Assembly (NCBI GenBank): GCA_023819625.1
Contig: JAMWCK010000001.1
Coordinates: 1 to 31,817, forward strand
DNA from: Candidatus Omnitrophota bacterium
Lineage (GTDB): Bacteria; Omnitrophota; Gorgyraeia; Gygaellales; Profunditerraquicolaceae
Reading direction: 5' to 3'
Length of the DNA: 31,817 nucleotides
Of this stretch, positions 3,001 to 10,715 are shown in pieces (the first letter of the stretch is position 1; every line of letters starts with the position of its first letter). Position numbers and translations under genes: made by a program. The notes beneath the pieces were generated by a model, which saw only the letters and a list, made by a program, of their open reading frames with translations, was not told the DNA's origin and searched no databases.

Positions 3001-3675
3001 GCAATTATCAGTGAGATTGATGGTTATGTAGAGTTTGGTGAGACCAAGAAGGGTCAGCGCGTAATTATCGTTAGGTCACCGACGGGTATGCAAAGAGAAT
3101 ATGTTATACCCCACGGTAAACACCCTAATGTCTATAAAGGTGATAAGGTATTTGCCGGCCAACAGTTAACTGATGGACCGGTAGTTTTACAGGATATCTT
3201 AAGGGTTTGCGGTGACAAGGCGTTACAGGAATATTTAGTAAATGAAATTCAGGAGGTTTATCGTCTCCAAGGCGTAGATATTAATGATAAACACATTGAG
3301 TTAATTATCCGGCAGATGTTAAGAAAGGTTCGTGTGGAAGATCCGGGAGATACAGATTTTCTGGTGATGCAGCAGGTGGATAAATGGAAGTTTCAAAAGG
3401 AAAATGCGCGGGTAATTAAGAAAGGTGGAAGACCTGCGCAGGCTGCACCTTTGTTGTTGGGGATCACCCGGGCCTCCCTGGCCACTGAGAGTTTCATTTC
3501 TGCGGCAAGCTTTCAGGAGACGACGCGGGTGCTTACTGAGGCTGCAGCTTCGGGTAAGCGCGATGAATTATTTGGATTAAAAGAAAATGTAATTGTCGGA
3601 CACCTTATTCCCGCAGGAACAGGTTTTCGCGGCCATCGGGAAATCGAGGTGCTAAAGGTAGAAGAAAATAAATAA
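1..3675 (+). CDS. rpoC: DNA-directed RNA polymerase beta' subunit (5'-truncated by window edge)
   Basis: NADFDGD catalytic motif, [52 protein letters not shown]. The frame is open from base 1 ([11 protein letters not shown]...), so the track's start at 16 is not the real start. Confidence 0.99.
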
Positions 3676-6678: not shown

Positions 6679-7893
6679 ATGGCAAAAGAAAAATTTGTAA
6701 GAAGTAAACCACACGTAAACATCGGAACCATTGGCCATATTGACCACGGAAAGACACTACTTACCTCTGCGATTACCCATGTTTTAGCGAAGATGGGTAA
6801 GGCTCAACCCCGTGAATATGCAGATATTGCTAAAGGCGGTGCAGTAAGGGATGAATCAAAGATTTTAACCATTTCTGTGGCGCATGTGGAATACGAAACC
6901 GATAATCGGCATTACGCCCATATTGACTGCCCAGGGCATGCCGACTATATCAAAAACATGATTACGGGTGCCGCGCAGATGGATGGGGCAATATTGGTAG
7001 TTTCTGCTGCGGATGGCCCTATGCCCCAGACGCGTGAGCATATTCTCTTGGCCAAACAGGTGAATGTTCCCGCAATGGTTGTGTTTTTAAACAAGATTGA
7101 TGTTGTCTCGGATAAAGAGCTCATTGACCTCGTTGAGATGGAAGTTAGAGAATTGTTGAGTAAATATGATTTTCCCGCAGATAAGACTCCGGTTATCCGG
7201 GGGAGCGCCTTAAAGGCCCTGCAGGCAATTCAATCTTCAGGTGATCCGAAGCATCCGGATTGTCAGCCGATTCATGATTTGATGAAGGCAGTAGATGAGT
7301 TTATACCTATTCCCATAAGAGATTTAGATAAACCGTTTCTTATGGCCGTAGAAGATGTCTTTAGCATTGAAGGAAGGGGAACTGTAGGGACAGGAAGAAT
7401 AGAGCGGGGAAGGGTAAAACTTAATGACGAGGTAGAATTAGTGGGTTTAAGGCCTGAGCCAAAGAAGACGGTTGTTACCGGTATCGAGATGTTCCGTAAG
7501 ACCCTTGACGAAGGCCAGGCAGGTGATAACGTGGGTCTTCTTTTGCGTGGTGTGGAGAAGGATGAAATTGAACGCGGGATGGTTATTGCCGCGCCAAAGA
7601 CCATTACTCCCCATACCAAATTTAAGGCTCAGGTTTATATTTTGACCAAAGAGGAGGGTGGTCGACATACGCCTTTCTTTACGGGTTATCGACCACAATT
7701 TTATTTCCGCACCACGGATGTTACCGGGTCAGTAAAATTACCCCAGGCAGTAGAAATGGTTATGCCCGGAGATAATGTTAATCTGGAAATAGAATTAATT
7801 ACACCGATTGCGATGGAAAAGGAATCACGCTTTGCCATTCGTGAAGGTGGACATACCGTTGGCGCAGGAGTGGTTACGGAAATAATCGCCTAA
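6679..7893 (+). CDS. tuf: Elongation factor Tu (atypical switch I region)
   Basis: [36 protein letters not shown]; strong SD GGAGGTG at 6666-6672. Confidence 0.99.
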
Positions 7894-7984
7894 GCGTTAA
7901 TTTCGTTAGTCTCGTTCGGGGTCTGTTATTTTCGTTGCCGTGCGGTAATTGCGAACAAGACGAACAAAACGAACTTTAGCGAAC
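7894..7984. repeat. Intergenic 9-nt-period repeat element (CGTT units then CGAAC units), foldable as a long imperfect hairpin
   Basis: CGTT at 7895, 7904, 7913, 7933 (TGTT at 7924); CGAAC at 7952, 7961, 7970, 7980. Confidence 0.8.
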
Positions 7985-8916: not shown

Positions 8917-9549
8917 ATGGAAGTTTTCAGTTTACCCGTATATAATCTCGACGGTAAAGAAATAGATACATTAAAGTTAGACTCTACAGTCTTTGATGGT
9001 ACAATTAACCATCCATCACTATATCAGGCAGTTTGTGCATTTTTGGCTAATCAGAGAAGGGGTCTTGCTTCTTGTAAGACGCGGGGAGAGGTTTCCGGTG
9101 GCGGCCGTAAGCCATGGCGACAAAAGGGAACAGGACGCGCACGCGTAGGCTCGATCCGTTCACCCTTGTGGCGGCATGGAGGAGTAATTTTTGGACCGCA
9201 CCCGAGAGATTTTTCTTTTCGTTTACCCGAGAAGATAAAAAGACTGGCTTTGAAATCTAGTCTTAATGCTAAGGTAAAAGAAAATAATTTCCTCGTTTTG
9301 GATAAATTCGTAATAGAAAAATCAAAGACGAAAGAGGCAGTAGGGATTTTTAATCGCTTAAAGATTAACGCAAAGACACTTTTATTGTTAGACAAGATAG
9401 ATGAAAACATAAAGCGGGCATTGCGCAATATTTCCTTTTTAGATTTTAACCTTGCTTATAATACACATGCCTATGAGATTTTAGCGCATAAAAAAATCAT
9501 AATTACGAAATTAGGTTTAGACCAGCTAGTTGGAAGATTGAAAAAATGA
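8917..9549 (+). CDS. rplD: 50S ribosomal protein L4
   Basis: KTRGEVSGGGRKPWRQKGTGRAR, GGVIFGP. Confidence 0.99.
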   Translation: MEVFSLPVYNLDGKEIDTLKLDSTVFDGTINHPSLYQAVCAFLANQRRGLASCKTRGEVSGGGRKPWRQKGTGRARVGSIRSPLWRHGGVIFGPHPRDFSFRLPEKIKRLALKSSLNAKVKENNFLVLDKFVIEKSKTKEAVGIFNRLKINAKTLLLLDKIDENIKRALRNISFLDFNLAYNTHAYEILAHKKIIITKLGLDQLVGRLKK

Positions 9550-9824
9550 TTACTTCTTATGATATAATTAAGGCCTTAATAAAAACTGAAAAGTCAACCC
9601 GAGGTGAACCTCAGGGTAAGTATTTATTTCTCGTTAACCCTGAGGCAAATAAATTACAAATAAAGCAGGCGGTAGAAGAGATCTATAAGGTAAAGGTAAA
9701 GGAGGTAAATACCTTTATTGCCTTAGGAAAATTGAAGCGCGTCAGGTATCAGTTAGGTATGACCCCAAAGACAAAGAAGGCAATTGTGACCCTTAAGGAA
9801 GGTAATAAAATAGAAACAAAATAA
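9546..9824 (+). CDS. rplW: 50S ribosomal protein L23
   Basis: TEKS, ANKLQIKQAVEEIYKVKV, KKAIVTL; ATGA overlap with rplD. Confidence 0.97.
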   Translation: MITSYDIIKALIKTEKSTRGEPQGKYLFLVNPEANKLQIKQAVEEIYKVKVKEVNTFIALGKLKRVRYQLGMTPKTKKAIVTLKEGNKIETK

Positions 9825-9870
9825 GCGTTAATCGCGTTATGCGCGTTTGGCGCGTTATAACGAACTGAAC
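9825..9870. repeat. Second 9-nt-period GCGTT repeat/hairpin element
   Basis: GCGTT at 9825, 9834, 9843, 9852 (exact period 9), then CGAAC/TGAAC. Shares the 11-mer TAAGCGTTAAT (stop codon included) with the tuf-rpsJ element. Confidence 0.8.
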
Positions 9871-9881
9871 AGGTTAAAAAA

Positions 9882-10715
9882 ATGGGTATTAAGAAATTTA
9901 AACCTACTACACCTTCACGGCGCTGGATGAGTGTGGCGGATTTTTCCGATCTGACTAAGAAAGAGCCGGAAAAATCACTTATTATTCCTCTAAAAAAGAC
10001 CGGCGGTAGGAATGTTTATGGTCGGATTACCGTGCGGCATATTGGTGGCGGGCATAAGCGACAGCTTCGCATCATTGATTTTAAGCGGGATTTGTTTGAA
10101 ATTCCGGCAGAGGTAAAGGCAATTGAATACGACCCCAATCGTTCTGCACGCATTGCCCTGGTTGAATATCCGGATAAACAAAAAAGATATATCTTAGCCC
10201 CCTTGGGTTTAAAAGTAGCTGATAAGGTAATTTCTTCTAATCAAAAGGATGTTGAAATAAAGCCGGGAAATAATTTACTTTTAAGGTATATTCCTCAAGG
10301 AACCTTAATCCATAATATTGAATTAAATAAAGGCAAGGGTGGACAGATTGTGCGTGCGGCAGGTAGTTCTGCACAGATTATGGCCAAGGAAGGGGAATTT
10401 GCTCATGTACGTCTTCCTTCAGGTGAAGTAAGATTAATAAGTTTAGATTGCCATGCCACAATAGGTCAGGTTGGCAATGTTGACCATGAGGCGATAAGTA
10501 TAGGAAAGGCAGGCAGGATGCGCTGGTTAGGCATAAGACCGACAGTGAGAGGTCTGGCAATGAATCCTGTGGATCATCCTCATGGTGGTGGTGAAGGGAA
10601 ATCCGGACAAGGCAATCCACATCCGGTTTCGCCCTGGGGAAAGCCAACTAAGGGTTATAAAACGCGTAGGCGTGGCAAATATTCAGATAAGTTTATTGTC
10701 AAACGAAGAAGGTAG
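9882..10715 (+). CDS. rplB: 50S ribosomal protein L2
   Basis: [36 protein letters not shown]. Confidence 0.99.

Follow-up and report, generated by a model that had tools for sequence, protein, structure and literature searches.

A 9-nt CGTT tandem repeat between rplW and rplB in an Omnitrophota bacterium belongs to a dispersed family of short-period repeats

Why should the junction between rplW and rplB, which encode ribosomal proteins L23 and L2, be occupied by a periodic repeat in one Candidatus Omnitrophota bacterium? In the 31,817-nt stretch of its genome analysed here (the window), the str/S10 ribosomal genes run in the order fusA, tuf, rpsJ, rplC, rplD, rplW, rplB onward, and 57 nt separate the rplW stop codon TAA (9822-9824) from the rplB ATG (9882). 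An earlier note, made from the sequence alone, described this spacer as homologous to that between tuf and rpsJ, and proposed either a dispersed element with a preference for TAA or gene ends, or a shared protein-binding or RNase site within one transcript. The TAA, the four GCGTT units at 9-nt spacing, the CGAAC and the TGAAC all lie where the note placed them (Table 1).

Table 1. Coordinates of the junction, its sister element and related features (window positions unless a contig, C, is named; G000 is the genome under study)
Feature	Position	Strand	Basis or remark
rplW (L23) CDS	9546..9824	+	ORF list; TAA stop adjoins repeat element
Forward arm, four GCGTT cores (9825, 9834, 9843, 9852)	9825..9856	+	Exact 9-nt period, linkers variable
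Perfect 10-nt palindrome CGTTATAACG	9853..9862	.	Axis is the orientation switch of the array; read from sequence
Short inverted arm, AACGAAC then degenerate TGAAC	9859..9870	+	Read from sequence; CGAAC 9861-9865, TGAAC 9866-9870
A-rich 11-nt remainder, AGG + TTAAAAAA, upstream of rplB start	9871..9881	+	Read from sequence
rplB (L2) CDS	9882..10715	+	Products 65-83% identical in 34 relatives
Sister element between tuf and rpsJ	7891..7984	+	TAA, CGTT cores, loop, then CGAAC cores
Y1_Tnp genes, G000	C61:4325-4891; C38:638-1123; C1:12289-13197(-); C78:4167-4823; C26:1449-2138		
Array loci shared by G000 and G251	G000 C52:28-1126 and C97:1-90; G251 C41:175-1273 and C42:592-680		
Signal-peptide arrays, G000	C42:1525; C20:6554; C99:989; C134:16818(-); C16:10900; C113:16451(-)		
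S10-operon mirror inserts, G252	L189 (G252:C7) 659-790 and 3279-3387		

The 9-nt periodicity of GCGTT at this junction is beyond chance. The spaced pattern GCGTT-N4-GCGTT occurs three times in the window, always between rplW and rplB, against 0.02 expected, and none of 100 shuffles reached three. The palindrome CGTTATAACG, on which the array changes orientation, has three sites in the whole genome and is also the axis of a copy that follows a ribonucleotide reductase (RNR) gene (contigs C52/C97), while the AACGAAC of the inverted arm is the reverse complement of the GTTCGTT unit of other copies. The A-rich remainder before rplB probably contains a weak ribosome-binding site.

A sister element fills the spacer between tuf and rpsJ. 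Its forward cores (CGTT at 7895, 7904, 7913 and 7933, with TGTT at 7924) are followed by inverted CGAAC cores at 7952, 7961, 7970 and 7980, in 9-nt steps and in the opposite sense, and the rpsJ ATG (7985) comes directly after. Both window spacers open with the 11-mer TAAGCGTTAAT, which has exactly two sites in the 1.1-Mb genome, at the rplW and tuf stops. Allowing up to one mismatch, TAAGCGTTAAT finds at least two matches in 31 of 100 window shuffles, and on its own it is thus weak evidence. Of the first 23 nt of the tuf-rpsJ array, 21 match an array within the MiaB gene. Relatives have a tuf-rpsJ spacer of 7-13 nt, and one of them (G264) an unrelated spacer of 92 nt. No Shine-Dalgarno sequence is recognisable in the 15 nt upstream of rpsJ, where the last CGAAC unit directly precedes the start; the copy on C124 ends 8 nt short of the next ATG, also without one.

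The source assembly is a metagenome-assembled genome of 136 contigs (39% G+C, 89% complete), whose EF-Tu groups with that of Candidatus Omnitrophota. Both spacers are reproduced in Logan contigs of the source run, made by an independent assembler, with one SNP at 7950, where C replaces T in the loop of the tuf-rpsJ element; at 7869, within tuf, these contigs read C where the assembly has A. These two differences are low-level strain variation. A single sequencing run, from a hot-spring metagenome, carries the locus, no RNA run does, and metagenome scans found no population variants of the element.

Genome-wide, 14 arrays of at least three CGTT copies at 8-10-nt spacing were counted where 0.13 would be expected. 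No other 4-mer with more than two arrays has so large an excess, and loosening the core to (C/G)GTT raises the number to at least 25. The 4-unit, 9-nt pattern has seven matches in the genome and its reversed control none. Two unit types can be told apart, a 9-nt KCGTTNNNN and an 8-nt (C/G)GTTAT(A/T)G. The logo of the 9-nt unit is (G/T)(T/C)(G/T)-CGTT-(A/T/G)(A/T/G); across these units the core CGTT never varies and is held in exact phase, and the linkers vary and are almost without C. Unlinked loci of the 8-nt type have identical runs of 16-31 nt in common, which shows that they spread by copying and not just by slippage in place. Neighbouring units within an array are also more alike than units of other arrays, as seen in an 18-nt super-repeat upstream of a tRNA (contig C108) and in the GCGCGTT units at rplW-rplB, so that local expansion is indicated too. 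The usual build is a direct array followed by an inverted one. Full mirror copies are found between tuf and rpsJ, on C81, C25 and C97, and in relatives; single-orientation arrays lacking a partner arm are found on C82, C124 and C108.

The placing of the two window spacers in one dispersed family is borne out by these counts. The periodicity stands above background and the 11-mer does sit at both stops, although it is not significant alone. That last point is what a local accident would predict, that is, a one-off slippage microsatellite that resembles the tuf-rpsJ element by chance. Such an origin is scarcely credible given at least 25 loci with a common core, the long identities between loci and the agreement of unit 3 in the two window elements at seven of nine positions, and it is contradicted by the genome-wide counts.

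The junction was compared with that of 34 further genera from the same family and order, in all of which tblastn with the rplW product places rplW next to rplB; the genus itself is represented by this genome alone. The spacer measures -4 to 25 nt in 28 of the 34, in agreement with the earlier statement that this junction is usually short and featureless. The remaining six have long spacers of unrelated sequence, several of them periodic or hairpin-forming, such as a TAGTAGG mirror (G007) and four GTCACAA units (G004). Because the spacer is short in most relatives and the inserts in the other six are unrelated, the element was gained in this lineage; it is a lineage-specific insertion relative to an ancestral junction of 0-25 nt.

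Inserts are also seen at other junctions of relatives. Between rpsJ and rplC, G287 carries a 9-nt CGTT array (L188, G287:C15, 5874-5942) and G252 an 8-nt GTTCGTGN mirror, and between rplB and rpsS G252 has a 7-nt GTTGTCA mirror; all three begin at a stop codon. Repeat types of 7, 8 and 9 nt are present in the single genome G252, and G264 has several long S10-operon spacers. At the junction of RNR and apgM the ancestral gap is 0-15 nt, and about 9 of 31 genera have differing periodic inserts, often starting from the stop. Of 401 Omnitrophota genomes sampled, 15 have the CGTT-N5 pattern, and every one of these belongs to the class of this genome. In a separate pattern scan of public contigs, the matches listed are mostly unrelated 9-nt coding repeats, and one useful match among them is a contig of Omnitrophica UBA1562 with a 5+5 mirror CGTT array. 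Compared with the 7-nt mirrors of relatives (TAGTAGG, GTCACAA and GTTGTCA in G007, G004 and G252), the repeat described here has units of 9 or 8 nt, a 4-nt invariant core and degenerate linkers. On the available genome comparisons, the rplW-rplB element is a derived gain of a kind that recurs throughout the clade.

When the flanks of the copies are read by eye, about 14 are found to fill spacers between co-directional genes. These include the spacers between two subunit genes of 2-oxoacid:ferredoxin oxidoreductase, between a FabF-like and a LeuC-like gene, between a DAHP-synthase-like gene and tyrA, between dnaJ and the gene upstream of it, and between the RNR gene and apgM. Intergenic copies begin 0-5 nt past a TAA, TAG or TGA, or include the stop, and leave 0-12 nt before the next start. 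The copy on contig C124 takes up a whole spacer in the AACG orientation, and one copy lies upstream of a tRNA. However, the layout of the genome has to be considered. Co-directional gene pairs make up 93% of the total and the median spacer is 5 nt, so nearly every intergenic insert must adjoin a stop. That all of the roughly 14 intergenic copies lie in co-directional spacers has a probability of 0.83^14 = 0.07, given that 83% of intergenic bases lie in such spacers, and the enrichment is not significant against this layout. The link of the copies to gene ends is real as a description, and it is inseparable from genome compaction.

Of the two proposals of the earlier note, the dispersed element is supported, but its preference for TAA or gene ends is not established. 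Copies do start within 5 nt of TAA, TAG or TGA stops, as the layout of the genome would lead one to expect, and further copies lie inside coding sequence and upstream of a tRNA. The shared site within one transcript is not supported as stated, since most copies are in operons other than S10 and in both orientations relative to transcription, and the folds are no better than those of shuffles (see below). Two of about 25 copies fall in the ten S10-operon junctions, and the S10 operon has been hit in three other genera too, which hints at a bias towards highly expressed operons.

Copies of the repeat are not confined to spacers. DapF contains a perfect (CGTTATTG) x3.8 array directly past its GNDF motif (C121:3222-3251, L242), and its alignment with solved DapF structures reveals no change in length; a five-unit, 9-nt CGTT array lies within MiaB (C113:16895-16934, L241). 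Elsewhere in the genome, outside the window, six predicted signal peptides have a hydrophobic core encoded by 8- or 9-nt arrays (Table 1), and in these VIALL, encoded as GTT-ATT-GCG-TTA-TTG, is the 8-nt repeat itself. Four of these six repeat-encoded N-terminal signal peptides have a lipobox (LTAC, LWGC, FWGC and LAGC). Such tolerance in coding DNA is easier to reconcile with a sequence that spreads than with a dedicated site.

The copy that follows the RNR gene might be taken as a case of constraint, as its identity between this genome and G251 is 99%, against 77% for the gene body. Among 204 family genomes, however, the full element is present in these two only, and closer relatives are without it. 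Each of the two genomes carries the element at the same two loci, the second within a 1.1-kb block that is 95.5% identical and includes an N6/N4 DNA methylase gene. Identity at these loci is 95-99%, compared with about 77% for housekeeping genes of the two genera. The restricted occurrence, the same two loci and the methylase-bearing block mean that lateral transfer explains the identity better than constraint, and purifying selection was rejected on these grounds. In the single orthologous pair of arrays, which lies within the 95.5% block, the array has changed at about the rate of the block, one core change included. Two loci of G251 have a 43-nt segment in common, a further sign of dispersal by copying. 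In G251 a Dam-type methylase stands in place of apgM after the array, and the arrays border laterally moved restriction-modification DNA and lie where contigs break.

Whether the repeat acts as a structured RNA was addressed by folding. The ViennaRNA fold of the rplW-rplB spacer has -17.8 kcal/mol (z = -1.55 against shuffles). For the tuf-rpsJ element the energy is -25.5 kcal/mol and z is -0.05; pairing in this longer element is between cores only, and the linkers of the two arms stay unpaired. A stable RNA rod was rejected, as neither fold is better than shuffles. The hairpin complementarity pointed out earlier does exist (9835-9840 with 9857-9862, and 9842-9845 with 9851-9854, around a TTTGG loop), and ViennaRNA prefers a different, overlapping hairpin. 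An Rfam 15 covariance-model search gave no family match, its only hit being a chance tmRNA fragment (E = 0.84) elsewhere in the stretch searched, and neither a terminator (GC-rich stem plus T-run) nor a promoter was found at 9822-9881 or 7891-7984. The mirror copies do have a strict polarity: on whichever strand they lie, the CGTT arm comes first and the AACG arm second, in 10 cases to 0 (about six independent elements). The reverse order would be expected to place the U-rich arm after the stem and thus a terminator inside operons. The polarity would also be explained if copying were directional or if a protein left its footprint here.

An alternative possibility is that an intercistronic stem-loop, REP/BIME-like, has been selected here. 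Placed just past the rplW stop, such a loop would hold up 3'-5' decay or the terminating ribosome; in this way it would fix the L23:L2 ratio or flag a site for processing by RNase III/E. The spacer can form its hairpin from 1 nt before the stop, many mirror copies in this genome and in relatives begin at a stop, and the CGTT-first order would keep the U-rich arm 5', avoiding a terminator-like 3' U-tract. In E. coli, REPs within 15 nt of a stop are reported, in 2015 work by Liang, Rudd and Deutscher, to affect translation of the upstream gene, which counts for this reading. Against it are the two z values, arm linkers that do not pair, the single-orientation arrays on C82, C124 and C108, and relatives that manage with a junction of 0-10 nt, so a selected stem-loop of this kind appears unlikely.

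Known mobile and repetitive elements were considered as sources. Like REP and BIME sequences (REPINs), the arrays are short, genome-specific and capable of forming hairpins, and they lie at gene 3' ends within operons; unlike the arrays, REPs are without phased short units and flank their RAYT gene. Five Y1_Tnp genes (PF01797; RAYT/IS200-like) are present in the 1.1-Mb genome (Table 1), and their flanks carry other palindromes, of the GAAACAGTTTC, GGTCTCACC and AACCCCGGGGTT types. CGTT arrays were found beside none of the five, which indicates that the arrays are not REPs of these genes, and a REP/RAYT link was rejected. At least three Y1_Tnp genes are flanked by a palindromic repeat family of their own (GAAACAGTTTC; AACCCCGGGGTTGGAA; GGAGGTCTCACCTCC), and two of the flanking palindromes account for over-represented 8-mers. 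A single motif of the DNA-uptake type was likewise rejected: no over-represented 8-mer of the genome is related to the unit, and GTTCGTT has just 52 occurrences on both strands. The attC sites of integrons have the core order AAC...GTT and are not periodic. They too were discarded as a match, their polarity being opposite to that of the CGTT-first arrays and periodicity being absent. TAA- or TAG-like triplets stand at both edges of several copies, yet the units themselves contain TAA or TAG, and a target-site duplication, which together with terminal inverted repeats would mark a MITE or foldback transposable element, therefore cannot be called. No copying machinery for the arrays was identified.

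Three features of a short-period (6-9 nt) intergenic repeat family are present here, namely at least three head-to-tail units, many unlinked loci and frequent pairing with an inverted array. The rplW-rplB repeat is real, and it belongs to a repeat type already reported in other bacteria and is not a new kind; no paper on such short-period repeats in Omnitrophota was found. The closest parallel is in Geobacter metallireducens, for which paired "global regulator binding sites" of classes 1-3 have been described (Aklujkar et al., 2009; PMC2700814). They comprise 24 pairs with four tandem octanucleotides per site, 21 pairs of three 8-9-nt repeats and eight pairs of five heptanucleotides, with the units GTTGCTYN, TCTCCGTS[Y] and MTYCTGA (PMC2700814). 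The sites of a pair lie on opposite strands at variable distance, for example between proB and proA, and they are absent from G. sulfurreducens; the authors proposed, without a test, that global regulators of the IHF/HU type bind them, and noted IS elements at a fixed distance (PMC2700814). The arrays described here resemble these sites in having three to five tandem units of 7-9 nt, mostly opposite-strand pairs and tens of copies within operons. They differ in unit sequence, in phylum, in having no adjacent IS and in occurring in coding sequence as well. A second parallel is provided by the GGGNATC heptamers of Xanthomonas and Nostoc and the cyanobacterial STRR (Rehm et al., 2015; PMC4692102). 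These heptamers are enriched between aligned ORFs, within 50 bp of stop codons or overlapping them, are transcribed, prefer about four units and are not tied to phase-variable genes (PMC4692102). Copies here also lie between aligned ORFs and near stops, and the rplW-rplB array has four units, whereas the heptamers are 7 nt long, G-rich and G-quadruplex-forming and CGTT units are 8 or 9 nt without G-tracts. Membership in that class requires four phased G-tracts and was rejected, as no run of three or more G occurs in the rplW-rplB repeat units.

Phased binding sites for an oligomeric nucleic-acid-binding protein have also to be weighed. One protomer would contact each core, on double-stranded DNA or RNA, at one core per 9 nt (8 nt in the sister type), and the bound protein would serve to organise or regulate operon junctions. 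By analogy, models may be found in the iteron operators of ribbon-helix-helix proteins and in the TRAP triplet array. Iteron operators (omega, ParR, MetJ) and the (G/U)AG array of TRAP consist of contiguous phased units, in each of which the core is conserved and the spacer free. A replicon has few such arrays, they are placed at promoters or leaders, and their cognate protein is established. The CGTT arrays are like them in their short phased units, direct or convergent, with conserved core and free spacer. An invariant core in exact phase with variable linkers, an exclusively convergent polarity, both orientations relative to genes (which fits a double-stranded DNA site) and the recurrence of CGTT-N5 within one class all speak for such a protein, and the G. 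metallireducens authors proposed global regulators (IHF/HU), which they left unidentified, for their paired sites (PMC2700814). However, no candidate protein was found, the sites lie within transcription units and not at promoters, unit sequence and period vary between loci and genomes, even within G252, copies exist in coding sequence, and the sole orthologous comparison contains a core mutation. We therefore consider a protein array of this sort possible but doubtful. A more specific version, in which the 9-nt CGTT-N5 and 8-nt arrays serve as a phased code recognised by an oligomeric protein of one Omnitrophota class, one that binds DNA or RNA and loads on operon junctions, is improbable; core, phase, C-free linkers and CGTT-first polarity would then be its footprint, and lineage-specific units would reflect co-evolution of protein and site.

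The reading towards which we lean, if only somewhat, is that of a copied and locally expanded short-period element that is a passive part of the S10 mRNA and has a mild REP-like effect at most. The element would have been copied or converted into the stop-start junction of rplW and rplB and would then have grown or decayed through slippage. It would now be part of the S10-operon mRNA, where only a modest stem-loop could form just 3' of the rplW stop, and it may have uncoupled rplB from a junction at which the two genes ancestrally overlapped or abutted. An effect, if there is one, is probably mild and REP-like, on mRNA decay or translation coupling, and would involve no dedicated regulatory site. 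The published analogues behave alike, which counts for a copied element (PMC2700814; PMC4692102). Counted against it are the strict CGTT-first polarity, the hint of a bias to the S10 operon and the failure to identify copying machinery. The invariant core, exact phase and C-avoiding linkers, moreover, look like selection on a phased motif and are not predicted by simple slippage.

Short-period tandem or mirror repeats at operon junctions have already been reported in cyanobacteria, Xanthomonas and Geobacter. The rplW-rplB copy is a clean natural experiment on such repeats, being a recent insertion into the highly conserved and tightly coupled L23-L2 junction with an empty site in dozens of relatives. 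The signal-peptide cores that consist of the same repeats suggest that recruitment into proteins is possible, and the dispersed repeat may be a source of ready-made signal-peptide modules. Ribosomal-protein stoichiometry would reveal an effect of the elements on mRNA decay or translational coupling; should they be neutral, they are a measure of the junk that even a 1-Mb genome tolerates within its ribosomal operons.
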